Positions 5,071 to 46,220 of a DNA stretch of 64,000 nucleotides are shown here, piece after piece (position 1 is the first letter of the stretch; every line of letters begins with the position of its first letter). The position numbers and the translations under genes are program-made. The DNA comes from Gammaproteobacteria bacterium. Lineage in GTDB: Bacteria > Pseudomonadota > Gammaproteobacteria > Steroidobacterales > Steroidobacteraceae. The notes under the pieces are model-generated. The model did no database searches, was not told where the DNA came from, and saw only the letters and a list, made by a program, of their open reading frames with translations. The DNA lies in the NCBI GenBank assembly GCA_043769085.1, contig JAYVJR010000047.1:10389-74388 (forward strand), given 5' to 3'.

Positions 5071-5078
5071 TGGCATGA

Positions 5079-22691: not shown

Positions 22692-22692
22692 C

Positions 22693-24180: not shown

Positions 24181-26523
24181 CTATCGAACCACCGGTGCCG
24201 GATCAGGAATCAAGGCAACGACTTTGCCGAATTCCTGCCAGCCATTGCCGATGTCGACAGGTCCCTCACCGAACACTATTGTCGGATTGGTTGCTTGGCC
24301 TAAGTGAAAGTACACCGCAGCATTGAACCCTCTTTGCCCGGCAGCACCTAACGCGTCGCGAATCTTGAAAGCACCTGGTCCTGTGGACGTGTACCCGAGC
24401 GCACCCAAGTCCGCCTTGCCGTAAAGGCCGGTCGCGATATCAAATCCGAGCCAATAGAAAATATCGGCGTCGTCGGTGCGAGTTTCGGCCACCAGTGTAT
24501 CCGCCGCCGCAACCGCGGCTCCGCGTGCCGCCAGATCCATGTTGCGGTTTCGCTCCAATGAAAACGCCACCGCAAACTCATATCCTGACCGTTGCTCCGG
24601 TGCTAACGAGTCATGGATGCGCTGTTTGCCAGGCCCAGGCGCCGTTTGACCCTCTGCGGCAGCTAAGCCAATGTCAAATCCGTCTCGACTAGCAGCCGTC
24701 GATTGCCGGTTACGCAATGCCGTAAATAGCGGATCCGCAGCGGCGATCGAGGGTCCTTTAGCAGCGAGTGTGGCTAACGTCTGAGCGTCAATCGGCACAA
24801 AACTCGCCAGGAACACGCGGCAACGATCCTCAAGACTCGGCGCCGCTGGGCTGTTTCGAGCACGCGCGTTTCGTGCGACATCGCAAATTGACTGCATTGC
24901 CTCCGCGGGACTGGGCGGCGGTTTCGGACCATTCATTACCACCCGCCCGATGCCTCTCGGCGCAGAACTGTTGCCGTCTCTAAACCAGTATAATTTTCCG
25001 TTAGGCACAATGCCTAGAATCACACCGTCACTGTTCGGAACGATTTTGGCGAACGAGTTCCAACCCGAACCGACAAAACGAGGTTCTTGCCATTTGAATT
25101 CGCCCGTGGCGTAACCGTCGTGGCGATAGAACAATAAACTGCCATCTCGGCGAACCGCATAGATGGCGCCCAGACCGGTCGAGAAAACCTCTCTGAAACT
25201 ACCCCAACCGGATCCCACAACCTTGGCAGGTTGCCAACTGCGCATGCCGTGATCTGCGCCGTTATTTCTATACCAGACCAACTTACCGTCATTGGTGATG
25301 CCGTAGACGATGCCCTGGCCGCCCGAAAAGATACGCGAAAATGACCAACCGCTACCCACCTCTACGGGCGCAGTCCAAGCACTGCTGCCGTCGTTAAAAC
25401 CATCATGTCGATACCAGACCAGCTTCCCTTCAGCTGTTAGGGCATAGAGTGTGTTGCCACCCGCGGCAATAATGTCTCGAAAGCTGCCCCATCCGTTACC
25501 CACTTTTCTGGGGCCTTGCCACGCCGTCGAATTGGACTCTTTGCGATACCAGAGCAAATCGCCATTCGGACGAACCGCGTAAATCCAAAGTGGCTGATAG
25601 TTCGGCGGAGTCTGAGCAAATGTGCCAATGAACTGCGAGGGAGGCACGAAAGCACCCAGATAACGATTGATTTCATCCCGCAACGGGGCGACTGGCGCGT
25701 CCGCAAATTGCGTAGTAGATGCAGCCCACGTCCATGAGTCTGACTGAGGACACTCCTTGCCTGGCAAACAAGGACTGAAGGACCTGGCGTGAACACCGAA
25801 AAAAATGTCGCCCGCCACTGTCTTGATCAGAGACGCGCCGCCGCTGTCGCCACCCGCGATGGTCGGACCGCTGGCGGTGGGAAACCATACCAAATGATCG
25901 CCGCCCCGACCGGTCTCCCGGCTTGTATTGAAATTGGCTTCGCGGTAGAGATCGTCGCCGGACGTAGGCATTGCTGTCGCCCCGGCGCCTTGCGCAAACT
26001 GATTGATGCCGCGCCCGTAAGAGGTGACAGACAAAGGCACCATGGTGTTACCACCATAGAGATCCACGTTGTACCCGCCTTCGCGCCCGTTGAAGGGCTC
26101 TGGAACGCGAACAATGGCCATATCCATCGGTCGAAACGAAATGACACGCACTGACTTGCGTACCTGCACACTGGTGGTCCATGTCGCTGTTAGGGTGACA
26201 CTGTCTTCGGCAGTATTAATGAACTGCCCGGGTTTATCCGGGTCTGGGCTATCAATACAGTGAGCCGCAGTGATCACCCAGTTGTTTCGCAGCAGCGTGC
26301 CACTGCAGGAACTTCCGGGTATGCTGACCTTGACTAACCCATATTTCTCTTGATCCGCAGGACTGACCAAGTTTCCCGCCACGAGAGCCTGCGATGTGGA
26401 CCCGGTACGACCTTCCGGGCTTACCTGCGCCTGGCTCAGAGCGCCGAACACCAATGTGGTTGTCGCTATGACGCCGAAAGTCCGCCCGCCAAGTCGCAGC
26501 CGTTTGTTCAAGACCATGTTCAT
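24181..26523 (-). CDS. Secreted S1 (trypsin-like) serine protease fused to a tachylectin-like beta-propeller and an unassigned C-terminal domain
   Basis: Signal peptide. S1 triad (TAAHC, DMAIVRV, GDSGG). Four or five repeats of ...GKLVWYR..G....W.....VGSGW..F. The C-terminal 200 aa are shared with 41928-43922. Confidence 0.85.
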   Translation of the reverse strand: MNMVLNKRLRLGGRTFGVIATTTLVFGALSQAQVSPEGRTGSTSQALVAGNLVSPADQEKYGLVKVSIPGSSCSGTLLRNNWVITAAHCIDSPDPDKPGQFINTAEDSVTLTATWTTSVQVRKSVRVISFRPMDMAIVRVPEPFNGREGGYNVDLYGGNTMVPLSVTSYGRGINQFAQGAGATAMPTSGDDLYREANFNTSRETGRGGDHLVWFPTASGPTIAGGDSGGASLIKTVAGDIFFGVHARSFSPCLPGKECPQSDSWTWAASTTQFADAPVAPLRDEINRYLGAFVPPSQFIGTFAQTPPNYQPLWIYAVRPNGDLLWYRKESNSTAWQGPRKVGNGWGSFRDIIAAGGNTLYALTAEGKLVWYRHDGFNDGSSAWTAPVEVGSGWSFSRIFSGGQGIVYGITNDGKLVWYRNNGADHGMRSWQPAKVVGSGWGSFREVFSTGLGAIYAVRRDGSLLFYRHDGYATGEFKWQEPRFVGSGWNSFAKIVPNSDGVILGIVPNGKLYWFRDGNSSAPRGIGRVVMNGPKPPPSPAEAMQSICDVARNARARNSPAAPSLEDRCRVFLASFVPIDAQTLATLAAKGPSIAAADPLFTALRNRQSTAASRDGFDIGLAAAEGQTAPGPGKQRIHDSLAPEQRSGYEFAVAFSLERNRNMDLAARGAAVAAADTLVAETRTDDADIFYWLGFDIATGLYGKADLGALGYTSTGPGAFKIRDALGAAGQRGFNAAVYFHLGQATNPTIVFGEGPVDIGNGWQEFGKVVALIPDPAPVVR

Positions 26524-26558
26524 AGATGTGCCTCAAATTGAGTGTGTGCACGCTAATA

Positions 26559-26584
26559 AACAGTAAATGCGCGCAAATCCGGTC
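26559..26584 (-). promoter_or_regulatory. Candidate shared (ECF-type?) promoter, copy C: GACCG-N16-CTGTT
   Basis: On the gene strand: GACCGGATTTGCGCGCATTTACTGTT, ending 35 nt before ATG 26523. Same spacing as the three other copies. Confidence 0.5.
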
Positions 26585-26690
26585 ATGGTGGTAGCCGTCG
26601 TGCTGATACGACAGCTGAGTGACATCGGGTTTCAACGCACAAATAATGCGTCGCGGTCCAGAGGTCGCAGAACCGGACCGCAACTGGCGC

Positions 26691-29531
26691 TCACGGTGCC
26701 GACTCCAATAATGGCAACGCGGCCAACGATTCCGGTGCCTCAAACTGCGGTGTCTGTGGCCCGATACTTCGATCCCGCAAGCGTTCCACCGTGCTGGCCG
26801 CGGCCTCAAACCACTCGCGCACGTTGACGCGGCCGTCCCGATTGCGATCATTGGCCGGCTGCAGGCCTTGCAGCAAGCCGAGCGTAAATAGCCCGTGCCT
26901 GCTGCGCGCATATTCCTGGGACTCCTCGTCGCCGCGCGACGCTAACATGAACCCGATCCGCGATGAGGCGGAGCGTTTCACCAGCGAACGGGGATCAAAA
27001 CGACCTACGACGTTACGTGCCTGGCAGGTATCAACGATCAAAAATCGTCGGCCTGCCGTTTGTCGCAACCGCTCGAAAATTACTGCCCAACCGAGCAGCG
27101 ACGCAGAATCATCCACAACCTTCCCTGCTAACACGGCATCCACGTCCACACTGCGGGCATCGCGCGGTACAAAATAGTAGTTGCCTGCGTCGTCACTGAT
27201 GCCATGTGATGCTAGAAAGACCATCACCGTATCATTGCCACGCACATCGGCGAGGCGTGCAAGTATGCTGCGGATCGCGGCCTGCGTCGGTAGCGTCCCA
27301 AGATCCGACAGTGTCTGCACATGAACCTGGCGAAATCGCCTCGCGCCCCAGCGACGCAGCATCGCGGCCACCTCCTCCGCATCACGAGCTGCGTAGGACA
27401 GCGCCACGCCCGGATCCAACTGGGTAAAATGATTGACGCCCACCGCAAACACGTACAAGTCTCCGGGTTCAATATTGTCGGCTGCAGCAGCAGGCTCGGT
27501 GATCAGTCGCTCCACCAGTCCGAGTGACCGCCCGTTGGAGATCTCGACGCGTATCGTCCGATCGCTGCGCCCTAACGGCAACGGCAATTCGCGCACCAGA
27601 GTCTGCTGATCGCGGCCCGACAATGCGCGCTCCACCGTTCGCGTTTGCGGGATGTCATTGATGTAGACGGTCATGGCCAGCATTGGCAGGCCGCTACTAC
27701 TCGCCGTGAGCAACAGCTTGGCATTGCCACTTGCCACTAGAGTAAGTCGTGGCGGAAGCGGCAGTGTTGCTAACAACCCCGGTAGAGATCGTGACTTAGC
27801 AGCGGCAGAATCCGCTCGCAAGGCGCGCGTGACATCAGCCGGTTGATAAAGATCGTTTTCAAATTGAACCGCGCGGAAATAGTCCGGCCAGGTGTCGAAT
27901 CCATGCGCCCACTGCCAGCCGACGAGTTCATCGCCCAAGGGCGATGACGCATAGCGTCCGGATGGTGTCCAGGCCACCCATTGAGTTAGGCGTCTGCTAA
28001 CAAACAGTGACAGCACTTCCGCACCTGACGAGGCTGCGAACCAACGCACGGTTCCATCCGCCAGTAACGCCACCACCCAGCGACCGTCCGCACTCACGTT
28101 AACCTGCCGGACCGTGGTGCTGGTACGCACCGCCCAGCGTTTTTGGCCCTCGACGGACAGCGCATGCAGCGCCCATTCCGTGCCTGCCACAACCTGCCGG
28201 CCTGCCACATCGATGGCATACGAGTGCACACGCTCCAGTGGTTCCAGCGCTAGCGCACGACCATTGACGCTGAGCGACTCAGCCGAGAATGTCACCGTCA
28301 AATTGGACTGACGTGTCACGGCAGCGCGCAGCGCTGGCTCTTGAGCGCTCTGCGTTGTAAGCAGCAAATGGGCCACATCAAATCTCCATCCTGAGTTGTT
28401 GCCCGGTCGGCGCACGCCGACACCTGTTCCGTCCGCCGTCAAACGCAGTTCCGTGCGGGCATCGAAGTTGTCGACAGCGCCCTCCAGACGCCATCGCGGC
28501 TGCCCGTCATCGGACAGAATGGCTAACACGCCTTGTTCGGATCCGAGCAGCAGTTGCTGCGCCGAGATACTGACCAAGGCGCCAATCCGGCCGGTGGCCG
28601 TAACTAGCGACGGCAATGACCGGCCATCCGCCATGCGCCAGCGAGCAATTACGCTCTCTGAGCCGACGCTCGATTCGCCGGTGGCAAAAAAGGTACGACC
28701 GTCGCCAGACCATGCAACACGGGTCAGCTGGCGAAACCGATCCACCGCAGGCGGGATCAGCTGCCGTTGAACCGCCAGCGTATCGGCTCGCAATATGGTC
28801 ACGCGCGGTGCATCATTGAATCCGATCGCAACCTCCGCGCCGCTGGGTGAAATTGAGAGACCGAATGGCTCGCGACCTGCCAGTCCTGCGACGCTACGCC
28901 CTAACAGCGTGAAATCCGCACCATAGAGACGCACAAACCCGTCCAACGACGCTGTCAGCAACTGTCCTTGCGGCGTGAAATCCAGTTCCAGCAATTTGTC
29001 GCGATAGTCCCGGTCGCTGAATACTAGTCGCCGGTCCTGCAGACGAAACACGCGCAACCCTTCACGGCCCATCAGCCCAACGGCGAGGAAACGGCCATCG
29101 GGCGAGAATTTCAGACTGGCAACGACTTCTTCCAGATCCGGCAGCCGCCCTAACAGCGCGCCGGTCGCGCGATCAACCAGGTAAATGCAGGCGCGATGCT
29201 CGATGTCCCAGCATGTCCAACCGCCGGTCGCAAGCGTGTGCCCGTCCGGGGACAATGCCAATGCATACAGCTGCCCTTGGGCACCGGCCCTCGCCGGTAC
29301 TCTCAGAGTGTCAAGCAAGCGGCCATCGCTCAGCCGCCAACGGCGCAGCGTCTTGTCTTCCGACGCTGACCAAAACTCGCCGTGTGCAGGGTCGGCAACC
29401 AGCGCATGAACAAACGCCGCGTGTCGACCCGCTTCAATTTGTAACAAAGGATCGGACGCCGCCAGCGCCAGCCTCGCCAACAGGCAAAAGAACACCAGCC
29501 AGCAGCGCGACGCGCACACTGCAACGCTCAC
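26691..29531 (-). CDS. Signal-peptide WD40 beta-propeller protein with C-terminal caspase-like (peptidase C14) domain
   Basis: WD40-like repeats (SASEDKTLRRWRL, LALSPDGHTLATGG, LKFSPDGRFLAVG...). The C14 dyad context is VMVFLASHG and FLIVDTCQA. Its GTG start overlaps the TpsB stop (GTGA). Confidence 0.88.
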   Translation of the reverse strand: MSVAVCASRCWLVFFCLLARLALAASDPLLQIEAGRHAAFVHALVADPAHGEFWSASEDKTLRRWRLSDGRLLDTLRVPARAGAQGQLYALALSPDGHTLATGGWTCWDIEHRACIYLVDRATGALLGRLPDLEEVVASLKFSPDGRFLAVGLMGREGLRVFRLQDRRLVFSDRDYRDKLLELDFTPQGQLLTASLDGFVRLYGADFTLLGRSVAGLAGREPFGLSISPSGAEVAIGFNDAPRVTILRADTLAVQRQLIPPAVDRFRQLTRVAWSGDGRTFFATGESSVGSESVIARWRMADGRSLPSLVTATGRIGALVSISAQQLLLGSEQGVLAILSDDGQPRWRLEGAVDNFDARTELRLTADGTGVGVRRPGNNSGWRFDVAHLLLTTQSAQEPALRAAVTRQSNLTVTFSAESLSVNGRALALEPLERVHSYAIDVAGRQVVAGTEWALHALSVEGQKRWAVRTSTTVRQVNVSADGRWVVALLADGTVRWFAASSGAEVLSLFVSRRLTQWVAWTPSGRYASSPLGDELVGWQWAHGFDTWPDYFRAVQFENDLYQPADVTRALRADSAAAKSRSLPGLLATLPLPPRLTLVASGNAKLLLTASSSGLPMLAMTVYINDIPQTRTVERALSGRDQQTLVRELPLPLGRSDRTIRVEISNGRSLGLVERLITEPAAAADNIEPGDLYVFAVGVNHFTQLDPGVALSYAARDAEEVAAMLRRWGARRFRQVHVQTLSDLGTLPTQAAIRSILARLADVRGNDTVMVFLASHGISDDAGNYYFVPRDARSVDVDAVLAGKVVDDSASLLGWAVIFERLRQTAGRRFLIVDTCQARNVVGRFDPRSLVKRSASSRIGFMLASRGDEESQEYARSRHGLFTLGLLQGLQPANDRNRDGRVNVREWFEAAASTVERLRDRSIGPQTPQFEAPESLAALPLLESAP

Positions 29532-31207
29532 AAATTGAATTGCAAACCGACAAAGATCCGCGGCTTGCGATTGCCTTCCGACGCCACCAACTGATCGAGT
29601 GGATCGGCAAATTCAACGAACCCCTGCCAACGTCCGTCGGCGGACGTGAGTCGCATGCCGAGACCCCAGGAGGCCGCTCGATCAAGGGCCGCTTCGTTGA
29701 TGGGATCGTGACGACGGGCCTCGCCCCAATCACCAAATGCATAGGCCGAATACGCGGGACCATTGCGCAGCGGCACAACACTGGCGTAGCGCAGCTCTAT
29801 TTTTACGGCTTTGCCCTGATCTCCGGTCAATTCGGATGCATCATAGCCACGACCAAAGGGCTCGCCGCCGAAAGAAAACAGCTCGGGCGACAGCAGACTA
29901 TCGGAAGTTTTCTGCCATTGTGCCGCCGCTAACACCGACCAACCACCACCTAACGATTGTAATCGGGCGGCGTACAGTGTCATCTTGCTGAATGTGGCAT
30001 TGCCATTGAGCCGCGACAACGGCAATGCCGCGGTACCTGACATACGCGCGCTTAGTATGTCGAGTCCCCGCGTTCCTTCAAGGTCAAGCAGATTGACGCC
30101 ACGTGCCGCGTCGGTCCAGTCGACAGTCAGCCCGATGCTAACCGTGCGTACGCGATCCTGAGAGAGCTCCTCGCCTATCAACTCCGTACGGCCATCAAAC
30201 CCTCTTAGCGCCATGCGCAGAGCGACGTTGCGTGTGCGCGAACGCAGCAGTGGCAGGTTCGCTCCGAGCGTCAGTGCCTGGGCTTCGGTCTTGAGGTCAG
30301 GGCTCGCGAGGTTGGCCGCAATCCCGGGACGCGACTTGAGTGCCAGATATGACACCGAGCCGCTCGCGCCGCGCCCACCCACAGGTAGGCTGTACTGGGC
30401 GCTGCCATACTGCAATTCCCCATGCGGACTGAACCCGCCGCTGAGTTGCAATTGATCCCAATGCCCTAACACGCCGGCCAGAGAGACGTCGGCCAACACG
30501 CGCTGCGGGCCTAACGAGCGACTGTTACGACTGTTATATGCCGCTGTGGTGCGTAGCGCATTGCGTTGAACGTCGATCACGAGCTGCGCCGCCCCCGGCA
30601 TGGACGGCGATGGCAGCAGCGTACCGTGCGCCGTGGATCCGGCGAGATCATTAATCAGCAGCAACTGGCGTTCCAGCACCGCCGCTGTCAATGGTCGTGC
30701 AGCGCGCAGGGCATCGGCGTAACGCTCCAACCGTGAATTGTCCACAGGCATATCGCCGCGAAAAATCACACGATCGATAAATCCTTCAACGGCCAGCAGT
30801 CGCACGTGTCCGGACACTATCTCCTGTGCAGGCACTAATACCTGCGACAACAGATAGCCGTCACGGCGATAACGCGTCGTGAGTGCGTTGGCGAATCTGA
30901 ACAACTCCGCCACGGACATCTCGCGATTCAACAGATCGTGCGCCGCTGCCTGCAATTCTGCCGATGAATACACAGTCGCGCCGTCGAAGGCTATTGACTG
31001 CAACACGAAGCGCAGATTTTGCGCCTCCGGTGGCGCAACTTGCTCAGGAATGGCAGGCAATTGGCTGCGTTGCACCTCGGTCGGCGCGCGCAGTAGCTGC
31101 AATTCTCGTTGTATTTGCCCCGGCTCCAGACCTGCCGGAATGGTTACCTGCGCCACGACCGCGCCAATACTGGCAAAGTATCCCAACCCTAACAACAGAC
31201 ATTTCAC
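29528..31207 (-). CDS. ShlB/FhaC/HecB-family two-partner-secretion transporter (TpsB)
   Basis: Signal peptide, POTRA region (TTRYRRDGYLLSQVLVPAQEI..G.VRLLAVEGFIDRV) and a 16-strand-type barrel ending ...FVGLQFNL. Confidence 0.9.
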   Translation of the reverse strand: MKCLLLGLGYFASIGAVVAQVTIPAGLEPGQIQRELQLLRAPTEVQRSQLPAIPEQVAPPEAQNLRFVLQSIAFDGATVYSSAELQAAAHDLLNREMSVAELFRFANALTTRYRRDGYLLSQVLVPAQEIVSGHVRLLAVEGFIDRVIFRGDMPVDNSRLERYADALRAARPLTAAVLERQLLLINDLAGSTAHGTLLPSPSMPGAAQLVIDVQRNALRTTAAYNSRNSRSLGPQRVLADVSLAGVLGHWDQLQLSGGFSPHGELQYGSAQYSLPVGGRGASGSVSYLALKSRPGIAANLASPDLKTEAQALTLGANLPLLRSRTRNVALRMALRGFDGRTELIGEELSQDRVRTVSIGLTVDWTDAARGVNLLDLEGTRGLDILSARMSGTAALPLSRLNGNATFSKMTLYAARLQSLGGGWSVLAAAQWQKTSDSLLSPELFSFGGEPFGRGYDASELTGDQGKAVKIELRYASVVPLRNGPAYSAYAFGDWGEARRHDPINEAALDRAASWGLGMRLTSADGRWQGFVEFADPLDQLVASEGNRKPRIFVGLQFNL

Positions 31208-31749
31208 GGTGAATTCTCCGCTTGTCGCAATACTTCGACACGACGATTCTGCGATGCCTCGGGCGCGAGACCTGCCGCAGGTTGGCGGCTGCCTAAGCCA
31301 TTAATGATCATCAACCGGCCAGGAACGCCAAGCTCCACCAGTCGATCACGGACCGCTGCGGCGCGGCGCCTGGATAGCTCATCGTTGTAGGCCGGTTGCC
31401 CAAGGGCATCGGTATGACCGACGACTTGAATTTTGGCGGCCGGGTCCAGCGCGAGTATGCCGAGCGCCAGCGCCTGCAGTTGGGCCGTGGATTGTGCAGG
31501 CAACTCAGCCGAGTCGTAGGCAAAACCAACCTGCAGACTCAGCCCGTTCGAATTGCTCGTCGCGACATCAGCTACCCGCCGAATGGATCGTGTCTTCGTC
31601 GCTGGCTTCGGCGGTTGCAATTGTCGCACCACCTCATCGACTTCGAGTCGCTCGTCGGCGCGTACCACCTTGGGCTCCGCCGCGGACGCACCTATCGTGC
31701 GTGCCAGCAACACGATCAAGGACGTGAGGCTAACGACCGCGCGTGTCAT
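31204..31749 (-). CDS. OmpA-family peptidoglycan-binding protein
   Basis: OmpA_C block: VGFAYDSAEL...VVGHTDALGQPAYNDELSRRRAAAVRDRLV...NRRVEV. Start taken at MTRAVVSL; the ORF also allows 31773. Confidence 0.85.
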   Translation of the reverse strand: MTRAVVSLTSLIVLLARTIGASAAEPKVVRADERLEVDEVVRQLQPPKPATKTRSIRRVADVATSNSNGLSLQVGFAYDSAELPAQSTAQLQALALGILALDPAAKIQVVGHTDALGQPAYNDELSRRRAAAVRDRLVELGVPGRLMIINGLGSRQPAAGLAPEASQNRRVEVLRQAENSP

Positions 31750-33784
31750 CGCTGGAGCAACCGTTATCGGCATACGGTGTAGTGCATAGGTAGTCGCTCA
31801 CTCGACCATCGGTTGCATCGCCGTTGGTCGCGGGAGCGATTACGTGCTGGTTATTGGTAAAGACATCCGGACTGGCCCCGGCGACGCTACCGCTGCGTCC
31901 CAGATCCGCTGTGCGTCCGACACCCGGTCCGCCGGCTAACACGGTTGCGGCTGGCCCATTGTCGGTTCTATCACCTGCGGTTGGACGGGTCGACTCCGCG
32001 ACGTTCGGCGACTCGGCTCCGAGCGGCGGATCTCCCGGTGTGGGTGTGGGTGTCGGTGTGGGTGTGGGTGTGGGTGTGGGTGTGGGCGGTGCCGGCGGTG
32101 GTGGTGGTGTCAATACCACCGCGATCGATGTCAAGGGATCGCTCGCACTGCCCGCGAGATTGGTCGGCACCCCGCCACTGGGTCGCACGGTACCGACCGG
32201 AGTTTCAGTCAAAAACGCAAAGACGTTAGGCCCCGGCAGGGAGTTTTCATAGCCGTTGTTCGCATACGCGTGAAATAGCAGCGGCGCCTCCGTACGTCGT
32301 TGCGATAATCCGTCTTCGGTTACATAACTGCGCACCGTTGATCCAGGTGTCGAGTCTGAAATCAGACGTTGTTGTCCTTCGGTCAGTTGATTTTGCGAAT
32401 TGCGCAAATCGATAGACACAGCGGACGCGAGTGACAAAGTCCGTCCGACTATAGCGATGAATCCCGCCGGTTGACTATTCGCGCTGCGTGCAATCAAGTT
32501 GGCGGTGGCTGCCAGCGTTACCTGGCCCGCATCCGATAGCACTTCGATGATGCCAGCCTGCCTGCCAGTGCCCGCGGACACATTGAGCTCACCGCCAACC
32601 GCAGTGCCTTGAGTCGACACGACGCTGACGAAACCGCCCTGACCGCTACCACCACTGGCATCAGCGGCGCACGCCACTGTGCCGCAGGCGCGCACCTGAG
32701 CCCCCGCATCGATCTGCACCAGATCCGTATTGAGCGGTGAGCTACCTAACGGCCAACGGCCGCCGACGCTGATATTGCCGCCGCCACCGCCACCATTGGC
32801 CAACAATTGGGCCGTCGAAGTCAGAGTGACGTTATTACCGACGAGCGCGAGGTCGCCGGCACGATCAGCCGTAGTGACGCCACTCGCATTGAGCGTACCG
32901 CTTACGCGAATACCGCCGGACGCTAGCAATCGGATACTGCCGCGCTGGCCGTTCGATGCGGTCTGCGCGCGCACCACGCCCGTCAGATTAATCGCCTGAT
33001 CCATGACCGCGCTTGCTGCGGGAACAGAGAGCAGCAGAATCCGACCACCATCTGCTAACAACTGACCGCCAACGTCGAGCTGGATTCGGCTCGGGGCGCC
33101 CGTCGTATCAAGAACTGTAGCACTCAGGGAGTCGGGTGTGGCCAGTCGGATCAGACCATCGCCAAACAGATCCAGCGTAAAATAGCGGGCCGATCCCAAA
33201 GTGATTTTTCCCAGCCGCGCGGTGATCGTGCCTGAATTGCGCACCGACGGCGCAACCAGTGCGACCAGCCCGCCGTCTGCGACCGTGATCGTACCAGCAT
33301 TGCTGATCGTGGCCGTGTTAGCCGCTGTTGTTAGTTCGTTAAATGCGTAACGACCCAACGCCGACGCCGGATCCGCCATGAATGCGTCATTACCAATATT
33401 GGCCGTGCTCGCCACAAAACTTGCTGCATCGATTCGTGCGCTATTGCCGATGACGATGCCGTTCGGGTTGACGAGGTAAACCTGGCCATTGGCGCTGAGC
33501 GTGCCTTGCAGCGAAGAAAACTGGCTACCGGTCACTCGATTAAGCAGCGCGGCCTGGGCATTCGGTTGAACAAACAGCACACGCTCAGTCGGCCCGATGT
33601 CAAAGGAGCGCCAGTCGATGACGGCACGCGCACTGGTTTGTGTGACCGTGGTGCTGCCCGGAGTGCCTTGTATGGTTGCGCTCCCAGCGCGGACGACTCC
33701 GTTGACCGGGTCAGCGAACGCCGTTGTCCCGACAACGCCGCTGGCGAGCACCGCCGGAATCAGCGAGCTCCAGCGTCTCGTCAT
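31730..33784 (-). CDS. Short TpsA exoprotein with filamentous-haemagglutinin N-terminal (TPS) domain and a Thr-Pro linker
   Basis: TPS domain motifs (IDWRSFDIG, LNRVTG, LSANGQVYLVNPNGIVIG), Gly-rich beta-helix repeats, then PPPPPAPPTPTPTPTPTPTPTPTPG. No toxin-like C-terminus recognised. Confidence 0.88.
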   Translation of the reverse strand: MTRRWSSLIPAVLASGVVGTTAFADPVNGVVRAGSATIQGTPGSTTVTQTSARAVIDWRSFDIGPTERVLFVQPNAQAALLNRVTGSQFSSLQGTLSANGQVYLVNPNGIVIGNSARIDAASFVASTANIGNDAFMADPASALGRYAFNELTTAANTATISNAGTITVADGGLVALVAPSVRNSGTITARLGKITLGSARYFTLDLFGDGLIRLATPDSLSATVLDTTGAPSRIQLDVGGQLLADGGRILLLSVPAASAVMDQAINLTGVVRAQTASNGQRGSIRLLASGGIRVSGTLNASGVTTADRAGDLALVGNNVTLTSTAQLLANGGGGGGNISVGGRWPLGSSPLNTDLVQIDAGAQVRACGTVACAADASGGSGQGGFVSVVSTQGTAVGGELNVSAGTGRQAGIIEVLSDAGQVTLAATANLIARSANSQPAGFIAIVGRTLSLASAVSIDLRNSQNQLTEGQQRLISDSTPGSTVRSYVTEDGLSQRRTEAPLLFHAYANNGYENSLPGPNVFAFLTETPVGTVRPSGGVPTNLAGSASDPLTSIAVVLTPPPPPAPPTPTPTPTPTPTPTPTPGDPPLGAESPNVAESTRPTAGDRTDNGPAATVLAGGPGVGRTADLGRSGSVAGASPDVFTNNQHVIAPATNGDATDGRVSDYLCTTPYADNGCSSDDTRGR
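32037..32096. repeat. (GGTGTG)n hexanucleotide microsatellite, about 9 units, coding the (Thr-Pro)n linker of TpsA
   Basis: Read directly: gtgtgggtgtgggtgtcggtgtgggtgtgggtgtgggtgtgggtgtggg. In frame, so unit gain or loss keeps the reading frame. Confidence 0.9.
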
Positions 33785-33804
33785 GCCGCGGGTCGCGACA
33801 GCCT

Positions 33805-34923: not shown

Positions 34924-34974
34924 GAACATTCTCCTTCGCAGCCCGCTGGCAATAACGGGCTTTCTAACCAGACA

Positions 34975-35000
34975 AACAGTAAAACTTAGCCGTAACGGCC
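34975..35000 (-). promoter_or_regulatory. Candidate shared promoter, copy D: GGCCG-N16-CTGTT
   Basis: On the gene strand: GGCCGTTACGGCTAAGTTTTACTGTT, about 50 nt upstream of the first gene of the TPS/caspase operon. Confidence 0.45.
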
Positions 35001-35079
35001 AAGAGCTTCCAAAATTTTGAACTTGCCCATCGGCTGCGCAACGCGCAAATTCGCAGGCGTCGCCCACTAAGGTCGTGCC

Positions 35080-38019: not shown

Positions 38020-38116
38020 CAGGCTATTGAACCGCAATGATTGCGTGTGCAGATAGCGGTTTCTGGATCGTGAGCGCCTTGGCCATTGATATCAGGAGCT
38101 GCCGTTCGCTACCGGA

Positions 38117-41158: not shown

Positions 41159-41231
41159 TTTTGATCCTCTGCGGGGCATGTCATCGGGACTGCGAAAATC
41201 CTGGCGCACCATACCTGCAACGGTCGGATAT

Positions 41232-41822
41232 TCAGGTGCCTATTGCCGGATCGAGCGCTCGATTGAGCCAGGCGCGAGCTAACACCCAGTCGCGGCGAAC
41301 GGTGCGCTCCGAGAGATTGAGCGCCTTGGCGGTTGCCGCGTCATCGAAGCCACCAAAATAGCGGCATTCCACCACTTGGGCGAGTCGTGGCGCCTCGATC
41401 GACAAAACTTCCAAAGCATCATGCAGGTTCACGATCGTCGCGTCGGAGTCATCGCTACTGATGTCCGGCGCCGCCGTCAGTGGCACGTGCGCCGCACCTG
41501 CGCCGCGCTTGGACGTGAGCCGCGCCTGTGCATGGTTGACCAGCACGTGGCGCATCGCCAGTGCCGCGGCGCGCAGAAAGTGCTGATCGTCGTTCCAACC
41601 GGCCGCACTGCGGAGCTTAAGATAGGCCTCATTCACGAGCACAGTGGTTTGCAGCGTGTGGCCAGCACCGACTCGCTTACGCTCACGATGCGCCAAACGC
41701 TTGAGTTCATCGAAGAAGAGCGGAACCAGGCGATCAGCCAGCGCCCTGACCGGCGCGGCCGTTGCCGGATCAACCCACTGGGACAGGGAATCGGACTCAC
41801 TTTCGTCGGCCAATGGATTCAT
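41232..41822 (-). CDS. ECF-type RNA polymerase sigma factor (kinase-associated, TIGR02999-like)
   Basis: 196 aa. Region 2 (LVNEAYLKL) and region 4 HTH (AKALNLSERTVRRDWVLARAWL). Directly upstream of a Ser/Thr kinase, and no anti-sigma gene is present. Confidence 0.9.
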   Translation of the reverse strand: MNPLADESESDSLSQWVDPATAAPVRALADRLVPLFFDELKRLAHRERKRVGAGHTLQTTVLVNEAYLKLRSAAGWNDDQHFLRAAALAMRHVLVNHAQARLTSKRGAGAAHVPLTAAPDISSDDSDATIVNLHDALEVLSIEAPRLAQVVECRYFGGFDDAATAKALNLSERTVRRDWVLARAWLNRALDPAIGT

Positions 41823-41826
41823 GAAT

Positions 41827-42014
41827 CTAGTTTAGGCACAAAGGCCTGGAATTTCGAGATGGCGTGACCGGATCGGACGCGATTTGCTGTTCTGAAGTGT
41901 GTACTCAAAATTCAGAGCAGCGCCGCCATGAACAATGCCCGACGACGATCTATCTGCCTGTTTATTGGTGAAGCGATTATGACACTCTGCATCGGTAGTC
42001 GCGCGCTCGCGCAG
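41827..42014 (+). repeat. Duplicated 5' module (about 100 bp upstream region plus the first 29 codons), copy 1
   Basis: About 70-80% identical by eye to the reverse complement of 46041-46220. MNNARRRSICLFIGEAIMTLCIGSRALAQ vs MNHARRRSSYRFAGILFMTLCVESRALAQ. Confidence 0.7.
41866..41891 (+). promoter_or_regulatory. Candidate shared promoter, copy A: GACCG-N16-CTGTT
   Basis: GACCGGATCGGACGCGATTTGCTGTT, ending 36 nt before ATG 41928, in the divergent region next to the sigma gene. Confidence 0.5.
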
Positions 42015-43922
42015 GCCGACCAGATTTTGCCGCCGCTTGGCGGCCCAGGGGGTGGCCAGTTCGTGGCTCGCTGCCAACTGGGCGAAATTCTCAACGGTCT
42101 GGAATTACGCACTGGCGATGATGTGGACGGTATCCGCCCCATCTGCCTCGCCGCAAATTCGGCCAATGTCGCCGCGTCACGCCGCGCCTTTGCCACCGGT
42201 TTCGGTGGACCCGGTGCCGGCGTAGTCGCGCTCCTGTGTCAGGACACAGCACCTGCGGTGATCGGTCTTTTTGTCGCTTCGGAAGGCGCTGATTCCCAAA
42301 TCGTAAACAACATCCATCTATATTGCGGTCAGGTTGCGCCGGGACTAAAGCCGACTGGCTACCCTGCCGCTGTATTTGATGGGCCCGGCTATACCGCACC
42401 ACCACACCCTTTCTTTTTGATTGGCCAATCGGTTCAACGACAATCTGGAGACCAAAGTTGTCCCGACAATCTCGTCGCCGTCGGTATCAACGGCCGATCA
42501 GGTATTTGGTTGGACGCACTCGGCCTGATCTGTGGCGCAGCGCCTGCCAATCCTCGGCCGGTCATCTCATCAATCGGGCGGGTGGGCAGGCCGTCCACAC
42601 CCGGCCCGGCGCGTCCCATCTGCGAGGTCGCACGCGAGTCACGAGCGCGTAACTCACCTAACGCCCCTCGGTTGGAAGCCATGTGTGAGGCTAGTAAACC
42701 GACGGTTAGCTCAATCGGGCGGGTGGGCGGGCCGTCCACACCCGGCCCGGCGCGTCCCATCTGTGAGGTCGCACGCGAGTCACGAGAGCGTAACTCACCA
42801 AATGCCGCCCGACTCGAAGCCATGTGCCGCTCAGCAGACTTGCAGGCCCAGCCAGATCTGGCGACAAGCGGCCTGTTGATCGCACAGCAGGATCCGTTAG
42901 CCATGGCGCTTCGCGGTCAGCAAACGGAAGGCCCCGGCCAGCGAGGATTCGATATCGGCATGGCGGCGGCGGAAGGACAAACGGCACCCGGACCTGGCAA
43001 GCAGCGCATCCATGACGCTCTACCTCCGGCAGAACAACGCGGTTTTGAGGCGGCCGTAGCGTTTTCCCTGGAGCGCAACAGAAACGCCCAGTTCGCCGCC
43101 GCCGGAGCAATCATTGCGCGCGCGGACCCGGCAGTTGCGGCCGCGCATAACGTTGAATCAGACGTCTTCTACTGGTTGGGATTCGATATCGCGAGCGCCA
43201 TTTTTGGTGATTTGGCGTTAGGCGCGTTAGGTGATACCGAAATGAACGACGAACATACAAGGATTCTCAATGGCTTGAGCCCAGCCGGACAGCGCGGCTT
43301 CACCGCATCGATGCAGTATCACTTAAGCCGCGATTACGCCCGATCCCTGAGCATTGCTGTAAATCCTGCGATCGCGGATACCGATGTGGTAATCAGTCAG
43401 GTCTACGGCGGCGGCGGCAGCGCTGATTCTTCTTTTGTTAGCGATTTCATCGAATTGCTGAACCGAGGAACCTCCGCAGTCAATCTGAGCGGCTGGTCGA
43501 TTCAATATGCATCCAGCGGCGGACCTGGTTGGCAGGTTGCCCCACTGACGGGCACGATCGCACCCGGCGGGTACTTCCTGATCCACAATTCCAATGGCGC
43601 TGGAGCCGGGAACCCACTACCTAACGCCAATGTCCGCAGTCTCCCTTCGCTGGCAGCCAAAGCGGGGAAAATTGCGCTCGTTAGAAACAACGCCACGCTC
43701 ATTGGCTTCTGCCCGGCAAGCGCCTACATGGTCGATTTTGTCGGCTATGGCGCAGCGAATTGTTCCGAGGGAGGCGCACCGGTAGCGCAGTTAGGCAACC
43801 AAACCGCTGCAGTTCGCAACGCGGCAGGCTGCAGCGATACGAACGCGAACGCAACGGACTTTGAAGTGGCTGCGCCGCAACCACGCAATCAAGCCGCGGG
43901 CGCGGCGAATTGCGAACGCTAG
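41928..43922 (+). CDS. Secreted multidomain protein: Gly-rich lectin-like N-domain (tentative), duplicated Cys module, unassigned shared domain, C-terminal lamin-tail domain (LTD)
   Basis: Signal peptide. GGPGGGQF...VDGIRPIC repeats (jacalin-like, weak call). Shared domain GFDIGMAAAEGQTAPGPGKQRIHD...AVAFSLERNRN. LTD block VISQVYGGGG..FIELLNRGTSAVNLSGWSIQY. Confidence 0.8.
   Translation: MNNARRRSICLFIGEAIMTLCIGSRALAQADQILPPLGGPGGGQFVARCQLGEILNGLELRTGDDVDGIRPICLAANSANVAASRRAFATGFGGPGAGVVALLCQDTAPAVIGLFVASEGADSQIVNNIHLYCGQVAPGLKPTGYPAAVFDGPGYTAPPHPFFLIGQSVQRQSGDQSCPDNLVAVGINGRSGIWLDALGLICGAAPANPRPVISSIGRVGRPSTPGPARPICEVARESRARNSPNAPRLEAMCEASKPTVSSIGRVGGPSTPGPARPICEVARESRERNSPNAARLEAMCRSADLQAQPDLATSGLLIAQQDPLAMALRGQQTEGPGQRGFDIGMAAAEGQTAPGPGKQRIHDALPPAEQRGFEAAVAFSLERNRNAQFAAAGAIIARADPAVAAAHNVESDVFYWLGFDIASAIFGDLALGALGDTEMNDEHTRILNGLSPAGQRGFTASMQYHLSRDYARSLSIAVNPAIADTDVVISQVYGGGGSADSSFVSDFIELLNRGTSAVNLSGWSIQYASSGGPGWQVAPLTGTIAPGGYFLIHNSNGAGAGNPLPNANVRSLPSLAAKAGKIALVRNNATLIGFCPASAYMVDFVGYGAANCSEGGAPVAQLGNQTAAVRNAAGCSDTNANATDFEVAAPQPRNQAAGAANCER
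42558..42839 (+). repeat. Tandem 141-bp (47-codon) in-frame duplication
   Basis: P(V/T)(I/V)SSIGRVG(R/G)PSTPGPARPICEVARESR(A/E)RNSPNA(P/A)RLEAMC occurs twice. The two DNA copies are near-identical. Confidence 0.9.
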
Positions 43923-44039
43923 AAAGCCTCAGCCGCGAGATCACGCCGCTCGAGCTGACACTCGAGTCCCAGGGCAGCGAGGTCTCTGAAGACCAACGAG
44001 GCGGTCGAGACCGATCCGGCATTTGTTAGGGAATCACTG

Positions 44040-44600
44040 ACAGGATTGTCGCTGAGATCATTGCGGCGGTCAGTTGCGCATCTTCGACCAAAAGACCTCT
44101 AAAGATCTTGCGGCACATGCGACCCAAATTCATATGCAGGCGCTGCAAAGCCATGACCCTGCCGCTGGGCATGAGCCGCCCGATTGATCCTGGACTACCG
44201 GGTCCTGGACTCCTGGCGCATGTGCTGAGCTCGAACGCTCGATCCTCTCTGGCTGGGTCGGCGTGGCGTTTTTTATTGCCGTTAGTGAAAGAACTCTCGA
44301 ATCTTGTATTGAGCGCTAACAAGCTGCGTGCCGATGACACGTTGGTACCCGTGTTGGCGCCAGGCTTAGCGCGCGCGGCGCGCGGCGCGCGGCGGAGAAA
44401 TCGGCATTGACTCTGGCCATCCGCTACGCGCTGGTGCGGTGGGAAGCCCTCACTCGCTTTATTGATGATGGCAACATCGAGGTCGACAACAACATTTGTG
44501 AGCGAGATATGCGAGCCGTCGCTTTGGTAAGAAAAAATTGCATGTTCATGCGATCCGATCGCGGCGGCCAACGCGCCGCTGCTGGCGCCAGCGACTCAAG
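44040..44600 (+). pseudogene. IS66-family transposase remnant (internally deleted, frameshifted)
   Basis: RPKFICRRC...GPGLLAHVL...LRADDTLVPVLAPG, then in the next frame IRYALVRWEALTRFIDDGNIEVDNNICERDMRAVALVRKNCMF. These match conserved IS66 Tnp blocks, but large parts are missing. Confidence 0.75.
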
Positions 44601-44681
44601 AAACTGCTCAATCGAAAATGTTAGGAAAGATCTATTTGTCTTGTACCAACGGTTACGTTGCAACAGCGGTAAAGGCAGTTG

Positions 44682-46127
44682 CTATTGCGGCACCCGAATG
44701 GCGGTGGGGAGGTTTTCCTTGAACGCGTCTCGCGCACTCGGATTCCCCAGCAGCGGAATGAGATAGCTCATCGCCGTGTTGAGGTTCTGCTGTTCGCAGG
44801 CCGATTGCGCGAGCCGCACCTGCAGGTCGTCTGCGTAGCGCTGCGTGTTCGCACGCAGGTCAGCGATGAAATTCATCGTGAACTCGACATAGACGTCACA
44901 GTCCTGCGCGCTCGCCTGGCACTGCATATGGCGCGCCGGCTGCTGATAGGACGGATCGGGCGCGACCTGGCTGCAGTCGCGTTCTGCGGGGCGCGGTGGC
45001 ACGACGGGAGGTGTCGAAACGGCGGCCGGCTGCGCCTCCCCCTGCGACAGCGCGGCGCCCTGCACGGCACGGGCCAACGGAGAGCCCGCGTCGACGATCT
45101 GAGTGTCGGGGTGAACCACACTCTCCACGCCCACGCGCGGCGCCATCCTCTGCTTCGCACGGGACTTCACGCCGCCGTTCGCTCCGAAGCGAACCGCGTC
45201 ATTCGCCGCGATGGCCGTTGTACTCGTCAGCTGCTGCGCGAGCACTAGGCTGCGCACACGCGCGGCAATGATGGCGTTAATCTGAGCCTTCGCGTTTCGC
45301 TGCTGACAGCGAGTCTGCTCGATGCGAGTCTGCAAATCATCGAGCCACCCTTCAAACTGCTCCTGCGTGTACGCGAAGGTGTTGTTCGCCATCTTGTAGT
45401 CCATGATGCCGCTCGCGTAGTAGCGGATGTATTTGTTCACGTAGGACGGCGACGGAGCGGGCCGGCGACACGGCTGCTGTGCCGCCTGCGCCTGCGCGGC
45501 CTGATCTGTCGTGACGTTGCGCGAGAGCAGGCGCGCACTCATCTGCGCAAGCTTGGATTGCTCGCAATGCAGGCGCTGTACGCGCACCTGGATGTCGCCG
45601 AGGATGTCGATTTCCCTGCGCCGCAGAAAACCTGTGCCGGCGATGACAGCGGTGACGTCCGGAAAGCCGGTGCCCACGCGGCCGCTCGGATAGGGAGCGT
45701 ACTGCACCGGCGGCTCGAATGCGCATTCGCTCGCCATCTGTAACTCAAACTTGAACAGCAGGCGCGTGTTGGCGGTCTGGCATCGGACCTGCTCTGTGAG
45801 CGCCTGCAGGTCGCCCATCACCTGCTCCAGGTTCCGGATTGTCGAAGTCTGGGAATCGATCACCATGCGCGTGTCAAGAAAGCCGCTGGAGTTAGTGCGC
45901 CGGTAGCTACCGTCGTACGGGCGGGGAGCTGGTCCCTTTGGGCACGGCGTCAGGTCCGGCGCCACCACCTGAGATGCGAGCGCCGCATAGCTGAGAGTGG
46001 GCTCGCGGACGGCGGACGTGGAGATCTGAGGGCTGCCCTGCTGCGCCAGCGCGCGACTTTCGACGCAGAGCGTCATAAACAGAATGCCGGCAAATCGATA
46101 GCTAGATCGTCGACGAGCGTGGTTCAT
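44682..46127 (-). CDS. Secreted hypothetical protein with four internal Cys-containing helical repeats
   Basis: Signal peptide homologous to that of 41928. Repeats: LQALTEQVRCQTANTRLL, IQVRVQRLHCEQSKLAQM, LQTRIEQTRCQQRNAKAQ, LQVRLAQSACEQQNLNTA. No family recognised. Confidence 0.7.
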   Translation of the reverse strand: MNHARRRSSYRFAGILFMTLCVESRALAQQGSPQISTSAVREPTLSYAALASQVVAPDLTPCPKGPAPRPYDGSYRRTNSSGFLDTRMVIDSQTSTIRNLEQVMGDLQALTEQVRCQTANTRLLFKFELQMASECAFEPPVQYAPYPSGRVGTGFPDVTAVIAGTGFLRRREIDILGDIQVRVQRLHCEQSKLAQMSARLLSRNVTTDQAAQAQAAQQPCRRPAPSPSYVNKYIRYYASGIMDYKMANNTFAYTQEQFEGWLDDLQTRIEQTRCQQRNAKAQINAIIAARVRSLVLAQQLTSTTAIAANDAVRFGANGGVKSRAKQRMAPRVGVESVVHPDTQIVDAGSPLARAVQGAALSQGEAQPAAVSTPPVVPPRPAERDCSQVAPDPSYQQPARHMQCQASAQDCDVYVEFTMNFIADLRANTQRYADDLQVRLAQSACEQQNLNTAMSYLIPLLGNPSARDAFKENLPTAIRVPQ

Positions 46128-46220
46128 GGCGATGCTTCTTTAAAATTTGAATACACAGTTCAAAACAGCAATTCGCGCCCGATCCGGCCACTTCATCTCG
46201 AAACAGGTGTTTTGTCCTAG
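46041..46220 (-). repeat. Duplicated 5' module (upstream region plus signal peptide), copy 2
   Basis: Its reverse complement aligns with 41827-42014. Confidence 0.7.
46164..46189 (-). promoter_or_regulatory. Candidate shared promoter, copy B: GGCCG-N16-CTGTT
   Basis: On the gene strand: GGCCGGATCGGGCGCGAATTGCTGTT, ending 36 nt before ATG 46127. Confidence 0.5.

Follow-up and report, generated by a model that had tools for sequence, protein, structure and literature searches.

Two-partner secretion (TPS) is regarded as the simplest secretion route of Gram-negative bacteria, consisting of a cargo (TpsA) and a pore (TpsB) only. To our knowledge, dedicated processing partners of TPS proteins are known in a few pathogens only, and almost no function outside cell death has been assigned to bacterial caspase homologues. 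Here we describe a 22-kb block (positions 24181–46127) of a 64-kb stretch of contig JAYVJR010000047.1 from a gammaproteobacterium (hereafter the window, to which all positions refer), where a TPS pair is encoded together with an exported protease of WD40 and caspase domains (the WD40-caspase), an extracytoplasmic function (ECF) sigma factor, two Ser/Thr kinases and three further exported proteins. The block is a real, conserved and apparently unstudied cell-envelope gene set.

Among the described systems, the CdrA/CdrB pair of Pseudomonas aeruginosa is, like the pair of the window, of type Vb. A cysteine hook keeps CdrA in CdrB until LapG, a cysteine protease of the periplasm dedicated to this task, cuts the retained tail and frees the adhesin (PMC7616799, PMC4694147). 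The TpsA of the window also carries a C-terminal cysteine pair (C-x8-C) with a conserved motif just upstream. On the other hand, LapG is a transglutaminase-like protease (DUF920), controlled by the cyclic di-GMP receptor LapD and cutting at a TAAG site, whereas the window has a clan-CD caspase that is joined to two WD40 propellers and whose gene belongs to the TPS operon itself, with a control that is apparently transcriptional, via a sigma factor of the ECF43 group and a kinase. The protease belongs to family C14, no TAAG site is present in TpsA and no LapD- or LapG-like gene was found in the block. Since the protease fold differs and both LapD and TAAG are missing, the block falls outside the LapG family, and the resemblance would be a functional analogy only. 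In Bordetella FhaB/FhaC, the C-terminal part of the TpsA is likewise periplasmic, its prodomain being degraded by DegP and CtpA, and regulated proteolysis, involving also SphB1, sets the fate of the surface protein (PMC8263021). That prodomain is, however, of about 1,200 aa and is attacked by general housekeeping proteases encoded elsewhere; in the window, a short conserved motif lies in a tail of about 65 aa, and a dedicated, co-transcribed protease is predicted.

On the regulatory side, ECF43 sigma factors are defined by the PF07638/TIGR02999 type, an adjacent Hanks-type kinase, the lack of an anti-sigma factor and a Thr within a QTTA consensus, and two sigma/kinase pairs are already known, namely EcfK-PknS of Xanthomonas citri, which is linked to the type VI secretion system (T6SS), and EcfP-PknT of Vibrio parahaemolyticus (PMC13147305). 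The block resembles both in its PF07638/TIGR02999 sigma factor, in the QTT replacing the acidic DxxD, in the adjacent transmembrane (TM) Ser/Thr kinase and in having no anti-sigma factor, but it has two paralogous kinases with TPR domains and a predicted regulon of TPS/caspase and lectin/protease exoprotein genes instead of T6SS or polymyxin-resistance genes. An ECF sigma factor driving a TPS pair along with other secreted proteins as one regulon is found in the PUMA3 system of P. aeruginosa, where VreI controls PdtA/PdtB (PMC7035377); VreI, however, is governed by the anti-sigma factor VreR and the receptor-like VreA and not by a kinase, and the pair has no protease partner. As for the caspase, orthocaspases and metacaspases share the p20-like domain with an intact His/Cys dyad, and orthocaspases with WD40 or DUF4384 domains are known, the WD40 association coming from cyanobacterial surveys (PMC7475262). 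The described orthocaspases are treated as cytoplasmic or membrane-bound proteins with roles in cell death, whereas the protein of the window shows the reversed domain order (WD40 N-terminal, caspase C-terminal), is Sec-exported, has neither TM segment nor NACHT/AAA domain and is encoded inside a secretion operon. Full-text literature searches retrieved no paper describing either a caspase partner for a TPS pair or an ECF43 regulon of this kind, thus agreeing with the original prediction that the architecture has no characterised counterpart, its parts being known separately.

We judge the chances to be about even that the block represents one regulon made of three modules, i.e., an ECF43/kinase control, an exoprotein output and a TPS system whose cargo tail is processed by the WD40-caspase. 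According to this model, the sigma factor, which has no anti-sigma partner, would be activated through phosphorylation of the QTT Thr by one or both Hanks kinases, by analogy with EcfK/PknS and EcfP/PknT, while the large periplasmic TPR domains of the kinases would sense an envelope or external cue. The active sigma factor would then initiate at four TG[AG]CCG-N16-CTGTT promoters, a dependence that we infer, and drive the X-TpsA-OmpA-TpsB-caspase operon as well as the genes for three Sec-exported proteins of lectin, protease or unassigned function. Through TpsB the short, beta-helical TpsA would reach the surface, while its conserved tail (GG[PR]G...DLGR...DVF...C-x8-C) would stay in the periplasm, probably serving as a disulfide-bonded stopper. 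The C-terminus of a TpsA is the last part to leave the periplasm, and in both CdrA and FhaB the tail is a periplasmic control element; docking and cleavage of the tail by the WD40-caspase are therefore proposed. The protease, Sec-exported and predicted to be made in fixed proportion with TpsB, would dock the tail by its propellers and cut it most likely after the conserved Arg, as suggested by the comparative evidence below together with the LapG/CdrA and DegP/CtpA/FhaB precedents. Such a cleavage would control maturation, retention or release of TpsA, and protein X and the OmpA-like protein would be periplasmic accessories, possibly tying the machine to peptidoglycan.

Eleven convincing genes were recognised in the block from the list of open reading frames (ORFs) and from Pfam and NCBIfam searches, with the domains and at the positions originally predicted (Table 1). 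Five of them form a minus-strand operon in the order X, TpsA, OmpA-like, TpsB and WD40-caspase, where neighbours overlap by 4 to about 20 nt or are spaced by no more than 8 nt; an Omp85-type TpsB is hence encoded with TpsA in a single overlapping operon, as expected for type Vb secretion. The OmpA-like gene overlaps the genes on both sides; it is absent from the closest orthologous cassettes, and OmpA-like genes lie near the caspase gene in 13 loci. The caspase gene is found 8 nt from tpsB or overlaps it, depending on the start codon, the likely one being at 29519 as in the public gene call (942 aa), while the start at 29531 gives 946 aa. The two genes overlap by 4 nt in five of the fetched related loci (L003, L005, L090, L091 and L092; L-numbers denote such loci throughout), and from this gene arrangement, translation of the caspase gene is predicted to be coupled, fully or almost, to that of tpsB or tpsA.

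The encoded protease carries two tandem WD40 beta-propellers and the caspase domain at its C-terminus. Homologues match it along its whole length, and at least 480 relatives were confirmed by a scan of species-representative genomes. The catalytic sites SHG and DTC map to 27201–27209 and 27024–27032, respectively, and His772/Gly773 as well as Asp830/Thr831/Cys832 are invariant across 20 aligned homologues with identity down to 28%; the PF00656 match thus comes with the His-Cys dyad (H772 and C832) of the p20-like fold. A hydrophobic N-terminal signal segment is present in 53 of 62 homologues, with no further TM segment. An Asp two residues before the catalytic Cys is also found in Arg/Lys-specific metacaspases. 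This Asp, invariant here, and the conserved Arg of the candidate substrate tail are possible hints for cleavage after Arg or Lys.

A caspase in such a context could also be an effector of conflict, defence or programmed death, acting as an orthocaspase or in STAND-like immunity, or else the releasing peptidase of a polymorphic-toxin or contact-dependent inhibition (CDI) TPS protein. Indeed, a survey of polymorphic toxin systems reports caspase-like domains as releasing peptidases or toxins on several export routes, although its row for type V secretion (T5SS) names only HINT as processing protease (PMC3482391). WD40-orthocaspases have been discussed for programmed cell death (PMC7475262), and related cassettes lie near integrase, restriction-modification and Fic genes, the block itself containing an IS66 remnant. 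In the window, however, the caspase is a separate Sec-exported protein and not a toxin-internal domain, and TpsA is short, with neither a C-terminal toxin domain, nor the VENN motif of CDI proteins, nor a small immunity ORF downstream; no NTPase or STAND module is encoded, and PADLOC matched generic kinase domains only, with nothing significant for the caspase domain, the TPS proteins, X or the exoproteins. Because the protease is exported, NTPase, toxin domain and immunity gene are lacking and PADLOC hit kinase domains only, the sequences make a defence or cell-death role unlikely, and as an explanation of the whole locus we regard it as very improbable.

The proposed substrate is the tail of TpsA. 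The protein of the window is made of a signal peptide, the TPS domain with an NPNG motif at residue 114, a beta-helix, a Pro/Thr linker (32033–32107) and a tail with the sequence GGPGVGRTADLGR (31895–31933, residues 626–638), followed by SPDVF and by the terminal Cys pair (C675-x8-C684 of 692 residues, 31757–31786). In the caspase-linked TpsAs, across phyla, the tail consists of a hydrophobic stretch and then GG[RP]G-x-[AG]-x3-D-[LF]-G-R, followed in many of them by (D/N)[VI]F and a terminal Cys pair. Searched as a regular expression in the six-frame ORFs of all fetched loci (1.37 M residues), the motif gave 18 matches, all of them 1–54 residues from the C-terminus of a TpsA, or of a protein in the TpsA position, in caspase loci. 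Moreover, a DNA pattern for GGRGxAQxADLGR matched a single contig in a metagenome collection, where the tail has the Cys pair and is immediately followed by a WD40-caspase gene (33% identity, 931 aa). The Cys pair is kept in L003, L005 and L057, and in the form C-x(n)-C in L020, L026, L086, L088 and L089, whereas other members lack it.

The genes of the block are neighbours in other genomes too, as the original prediction required. Sigma factor, TPR kinase, X, TpsA, TpsB and caspase are found together in L003/L087, L005, L057, L091 and L092, partially in L009, and in L090 without a sigma factor being found. These six or seven independent, Steroidobacter-like genomes are all those with available flanks and a caspase 47–51% identical, and the genes around the cassette (integrases, restriction-modification, Fic, metabolic genes) differ in each. 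Beside the cassette lie tachylectin proteins (L003, L090 and L091), a trypsin protein (L092) and one to three proteins sharing an alpha-helical domain or the N-terminal domain of the LTD exoprotein (L005, L091 and L092), both described below.

The linkage between caspase and TPS genes was counted in non-redundant loci whose upstream flank extends over 6 kb or more, grouped by identity of the caspase with that of the window. TpsB and a BLAST-detectable TpsA were both present in the three loci with identity of at least 45%; among the 16 loci at 36–44%, all had TpsB and 14 a detectable TpsA, and below 36% each was found in one locus out of 27. TpsB is therefore encoded in 19/19 loci with a caspase of at least 36% identity, from Beta-, Gamma- and Deltaproteobacteria, Planctomycetales and Acidobacteriota. 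The 36–44% group (Rubrivivax, Variovorax KK3, Azonexus, Rhodocyclaceae, Methylobacter, Deltaproteobacteria, Planctomycetales and Acidobacteriota) typically shows tpsB-tpsA-caspase operons, as in Variovorax KK3 and Methylobacter, with TpsAs of 725–2,700 aa. The TPS/WD40-caspase core reaches far beyond the lineages that have the sigma/kinase wiring. Since the core occurs separately and with other regulators, and the exoproteins also occur without the core, the block is a lineage-specific fusion of three modules and not one indivisible unit. The joint system originally proposed is thus supported by the conservation of the full cassette, with the refinement that it is modular.

The separate occurrence of the modules (the TPS/caspase core without ECF43 and Ser/Thr kinase; exoproteins with ECF43 and Ser/Thr kinase, without TPS and caspase, in L093), along with the IS66 remnant, would also suit a chance neighbourhood of unrelated accessory genes gathered by mobile DNA. 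On the contrary, recurrence of the full set between differing flanks in at least six genomes at the caspase identity given above, overlapping genes inside the operon, and a promoter motif found four times in the block, nowhere else in the 64 kb and at equivalent sites in relatives, leave this explanation with an almost negligible likelihood.

A second type of caspase locus was also observed (L008, L011, L012, L021 and L025; e.g., L012 470–14655). It contains an ShlB-type gene, genes for one or two Pro-rich proteins of 262–455 aa that lack a TPS domain and a WD40-caspase gene, and continues with a classical ECF sigma factor, a TM anti-sigma-like protein and a small Peptidase_C14. Two proteins of N/Q/A/G-rich repeats of about 24 aa, reminiscent of curlin, and a protein combining PG_binding_1 and DUF4384 are encoded in these loci as well.

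The sigma factor of the window reads LQTTVLVNEAY in region 2.2 (LQTTVLV being residues 57–63), and its QTT (41643–41651) occupies the position of the phospho-acceptor Thr of the ECF43 QTTA consensus, replacing the acidic DxxD. The corresponding segment is MQTTALV in L003 and LDTTSLV in the L005 clade. No anti-sigma-like ORF is present near the sigma gene in the block. On its sequence features, the protein is assigned to the ECF43 group. The gene for kinase 2 lies directly downstream; its product combines an intact kinase domain and a periplasmic TPR domain with a single TM segment. Kinase 1 is composed of an N-terminal helical region, a kinase domain (VALK, HRDLKPSN, DFG, APE), one TM segment (about residues 384–403) and a periplasmic TPR-like part of about 570 aa, and it is the positional orthologue of the lone kinase of L003 and L090. 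The two kinases are 39% identical over about 510 aa, and both keep VA[IL]K, HRDLK, DFG and APE intact, with periplasmic TPR domains of about 570–600 aa. Kinase 1 is encoded about 3 kb from the sigma gene, divergently from the X operon, and the sigma/kinase 2 pair is convergent on it.

Alignment of upstream regions revealed a two-block element, TG[AG]CCG-N16-CTGTT, in front of four candidate transcription units, namely the protease-tachylectin gene, which thus has a promoter motif of its own after the operon, the X operon, the LTD gene and the gene for the 481-aa exoprotein. Its downstream end lies 34–50 nt before the start codons, leaving room for a short leader with a ribosome-binding site. 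The pattern TGDCCG-N16-CTGTT has exactly four matches in the 64 kb, against 0.08 expected, all four in the correct orientation upstream of these units, and four matches were reached in 0 of 100 shuffles. In L090 the same element precedes X (site at 5055–5080) and the tachylectin gene, and in L003, which has a sigma factor 66% identical to that of the window, it precedes the tachylectin gene. A sister clade, with sigma factors 34–36% identical, shows TGTCC[AG]-N16/17-CGTAT upstream of TpsA, X and exoprotein genes (three sites in L005 and four in L091, also in L057, L009 and L092), chance matches of this element being roughly estimated at 0.04 per locus. The two clades share the upstream half of the element and differ in the downstream half, as expected for related ECF sigma factors. 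The promoter-like motif that had been predicted to link four transcription units is thus found again, here with its counterparts in relatives. A first pattern, CCGGAT-N4-CGCG..., had turned out too specific, with two sites in the window and none in relatives, and was replaced by the two-block one; a scan of the block for sigma-70 promoters and terminators gave no enrichment over shuffles.

Some further features surround these sites. Between the sigma and LTD genes lies an imperfect palindrome (41868–41905), GCTGTTCTGAA-N14-TTCAGAGCAGC, so that a CTG(T/C)TC half-motif also faces the sigma gene; it may serve autoregulation or be the site of a dimeric regulator. A stable 8-bp hairpin, CTTGGCCGTTACGGCTAAG (34985–35003, minus strand), overlaps the upstream half of the motif of the X operon. 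The LTD gene and the 481-aa exoprotein gene have about 45 nt of upstream DNA in common (41865–41960 and 46095–46190) and signal peptides 65% identical (MN.ARRRS...MTLC..SRALAQ), while their mature proteins are unrelated, as though a promoter-plus-leader cassette had been duplicated.

Several observations weigh against the model of a single regulon with a caspase-processed tail. The link between caspase and tail, the cleavage and its site are drawn from sequence comparison and from analogy. Of about 21 linked TpsAs, 7 (L018, L019, L024, L031, L078, L086 and L088) lack the strict motif or have it in degenerate form, several that do bear the motif are without the terminal Cys pair, and in the clade of Polaromonas, Limnobacter and L008 the Pro-rich proteins encoded after the ShlB-type gene have neither TPS domain nor motif. 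WD40-caspases of about 30% identity lack a TPS partner, and the caspase family therefore has other substrates. Either kinase may be the cognate partner of the sigma factor, and the assignment of the -10 and -35 blocks comes from geometry and from conservation in relatives. The promoter pattern was built from the very four sites that it matches; it is therefore the lack of any other match in the window, together with the orthologous sites in relatives, that is informative. Finally, two TpsAs (L014 and L017) end right after ...DLGRR, and two different ECF signalling modules recurrently adjoin the caspase, each of which leads to a separate explanation.

In L014 and L017 a cut after the Arg would have nothing to remove, so that a recognition or transpeptidase signal fits them better than release by cleavage. 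PorU, of the type IX secretion system (T9SS), and GPI8 are clan-CD transpeptidases. The WD40-caspase might, in the same manner, remove a C-terminal sorting signal from TpsA and attach the protein covalently to an envelope component, candidate acceptors being peptidoglycan, lipopolysaccharide, the OmpA-like protein or protein X. The motif is always within 54 residues of the end, two TpsAs terminate at ...D[LF]GRR, and peptidoglycan-binding proteins (OmpA, PG_binding_1) recur nearby. When the caspase domain was compared with PDB sequences, the sole match was the GPI-anchor transamidase (eukaryotic GPI8; IIDTCQG / IVDTCQA, at the DTC region), suggestive given the C-terminal signal of TpsA but not significant (E=0.23); with a full-length caspase profile, WD40 matches swamped the PDB result. 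Besides this lack of significance, Pfam places the domain in C14 and not in C13 or C25, no acceptor-synthesis genes are present in the locus, the Cys pair downstream of the motif suits a stopper better than a leaving group, and we know of no precedent for such sorting in type Vb secretion. We consider sorting quite unlikely.

As for the ECF modules, the protease may feed signalling instead of, or in addition to, processing the cargo. The TPS/caspase module would then be an input of the sigma factor and not only its output, with TpsA/TpsB as the sensor and the WD40-caspase as a site-1-like protease; the cleavage product, or the cleavage of X, of a DUF4384 protein or of an anti-sigma factor, would activate the ECF sigma factor through the TPR kinases. 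Two mechanistically different modules are repeatedly found beside the caspase, i.e., ECF43 with a Ser/Thr kinase in at least six genomes and, directly downstream of the caspase in ten loci, a classical ECF sigma factor with an anti-sigma-like TM protein of about 260 aa and a second, small Peptidase_C14. Proteins with PG_binding_1 and DUF4384 recur in ten loci, often near caspase loci of this ECF/anti-sigma type, and the Methylobacter locus has, besides an OmpA-like gene, a Ser/Thr kinase with an extracytoplasmic DUF4384 domain (E=2.4e-23). TPR sensor domains typically bind peptides. On the other side, ECF sigma factors usually adjoin their own target operons, and adjacency alone therefore does not make the cassette an input, while ECF-like promoters upstream of X, TpsA and exoprotein genes point to the cassette being at least an output. 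Nothing like a cleavage site was noticed in the kinases or in X, where no search aimed at one was made. Signalling of this kind, which appears unlikely to us, is also compatible with the single regulon as a feedback loop and does not exclude it.

Table 1. Features identified in the block, with positions in the 64-kb window.
Feature	Position	Strand	Description and matches
Protease-tachylectin exoprotein, 780 aa	24181–26523	-	Signal peptide; Trypsin (S1) E=3.5e-10; Tachylectin propeller E=8.6e-35; C-terminal alpha-domain
Shared alpha-domain, ~200 aa	24184–24957 (-); 42714–43373 (+)		Present in two exoproteins
Promoter-like motif TGACCG-N16-CTGTT	26559–26585	-	34 nt upstream of the protease-tachylectin start codon
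WD40-caspase	26691–29531	-	N-terminal signal peptide; WD40; C-terminal Peptidase_C14 (PF00656, E=1.6e-10)
TpsB outer-membrane transporter	29528–31207	-	POTRA_2 (PF08479, E=2.2e-19); ShlB (PF03865, E=1.6e-20)
OmpA-like periplasmic peptidoglycan-binding protein	31204–31773	-	Signal peptide; Pfam OmpA E=1.4e-17
Short TpsA, 692 aa	31730–33808	-	TPS domain PF05860 E=4.1e-27; TIGR01901 80.7 bits (cut-off 29.1)
Protein X, 372 aa	33805–34923	-	First operon gene; signal peptide, helix, beta-sandwich; no family
Promoter-like motif TGGCCG-N16-CTGTT	34975–35001	-	In front of the X-TpsA-OmpA-TpsB-caspase operon, between X and the divergent kinase 1 gene
Hanks-type Ser/Thr kinase 1, 979 aa	35080–38019	+	Pkinase; TPR
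Hanks-type Ser/Thr kinase 2, 1013 aa	38117–41158 (or to 41212)	-	Pkinase; TPR
ECF43-type sigma factor, 196 aa	41232–41822	-	PF07638 E=6.7e-36, 124 bits (cut-off 21.1); TIGR02999 180 bits (cut-off 126)
Promoter-like motif TGACCG-N16-CTGTT	41865–41891	+	Upstream of the LTD exoprotein gene, inside an imperfect palindrome
LTD exoprotein, 664 aa	41928–43922	+	Signal peptide; Gly/Cys-rich N-terminal domain; alpha-domain; Lamin-tail (LTD E=2.4e-16)
IS66-family transposase remnant	~44100–44560	+	Degenerate, two reading frames; DDE_Tnp_IS66 E=8.4e-18 and 8e-4
481-aa exoprotein	44682–46127	-	Signal peptide; three Cys-containing helical repeats; no family
Promoter-like motif TGGCCG-N16-CTGTT	46164–46190	-	Upstream of the 481-aa exoprotein gene

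The first gene of the operon had been described as DUF4384-like and starting at 35226. The gene is indeed present, its start being most likely at 34923, according to the public assembly calls; the likeness to DUF4384 is unproven. Protein X gave no match in Pfam or NCBIfam even at E≤1, no Pfam domain was found in any of its 99 detectable homologues, and hhalign against genuine DUF4384 proteins (PF14326) aligned X on the DUF4384 core without significance (E=0.061, probability 0.9%). The signal peptide of X is accompanied by a conserved helix and a Pro/Tyr-rich disordered region, and two Cys are invariant in the beta-sandwich at its C-terminus. In the AlphaFold2 (AF2) model the Pro/Tyr-rich half is disordered and the beta-sandwich is confident but generic, and Foldseek against PDB retrieved generic Ig-like matches only (E≥0.03).

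Besides X, the 481-aa protein, the N-terminal half of the LTD protein and the domain of about 200 aa shared by two exoproteins have no Pfam or NCBIfam family, and the original statement that every part of the block belongs to a known family is therefore incorrect. The shared alpha-domain (residues about 525–749 of the 780-aa protein) is 50% identical to residues 263–482 of the LTD protein. Its homologues fall into 293 clusters without a Pfam model, from Acidobacteriota, Burkholderiales and Luteimonas, where it is fused to Trypsin, Tachylectin, LTD, CAP or PASTA domains. AF2 confidently models it as all-alpha (pLDDT 88), and Foldseek found no fold match in PDB (best E=2.9). Arrays of alpha-domain paralogues occur in L094 and L095 beside a 7TMR-DISM/GAF/cyclase gene. 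In L005 (48% identity) and L092 the caspase gene is followed by homologues of the LTD protein, and L091 has them as well. In L093 (9001–18391), the genes for a PF07638 sigma factor and for a kinase with a PD40/Tricorn-like propeller as sensor come after those for an alpha-domain protein, a protein of 594 aa and a Trypsin protein, and no TPS or caspase genes are present in this region; the exoprotein/ECF43 module thus exists on its own.

Past the sigma/kinase 2 pair, the block continues with the LTD gene, the IS66 remnant and the 481-aa exoprotein gene. The remnant had been predicted and was recognised by DDE_Tnp_IS66 between these two exoprotein genes. The block is flanked by haem and sirohaem genes on one side and by DUF1838 and a TonB-dependent receptor on the other, and its GC content is not distinct from that of the rest of the window. 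The nearest named relatives of the window are metagenome-assembled genomes of Steroidobacteraceae and other Gammaproteobacteria, and Rfam and tRNA scans gave no match in the whole window. An ALAS-like class-II aminotransferase gene (21735–23910, listed ORFs overlapping) comes immediately after hemB; in the public call it is shorter (418 aa), and in an identical public scaffold (L001) it lies within a hemC / cysG / PAPS-reductase / sulfite-reductase cluster. ALAS would be unusual in a gammaproteobacterium.

A broader view, speculative and, taken as a whole, somewhat unlikely, would be that a TpsB-type transporter, a tail-bearing exoprotein and a periplasmic WD40-caspase make up an unrecognised envelope machine of several phyla. 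The caspase-fold enzyme would read the C-terminal signal GGRGxAQxADLGR and be either a transpeptidase of sortase or PorU type acting on type Vb substrates, or else the protease whose cut triggers surface-to-ECF-sigma signalling, wired to anti-sigma factors or to Ser/Thr kinases according to the lineage.

In many environmental lineages, a caspase-fold protease with two WD40 propellers is genetically locked to TPS pairs, and the conserved C-terminal signature on the cargo offers a candidate substrate that is directly testable. The analysis also exposes a widespread secreted alpha-helical domain without family or structural relative. If the proposed model is true, the phosphorylation-controlled ECF43 sigma factors would gain a third known type of regulon, with a predicted promoter, and bacterial caspase homologues would gain a defined role in the periplasm, other than in cell death.

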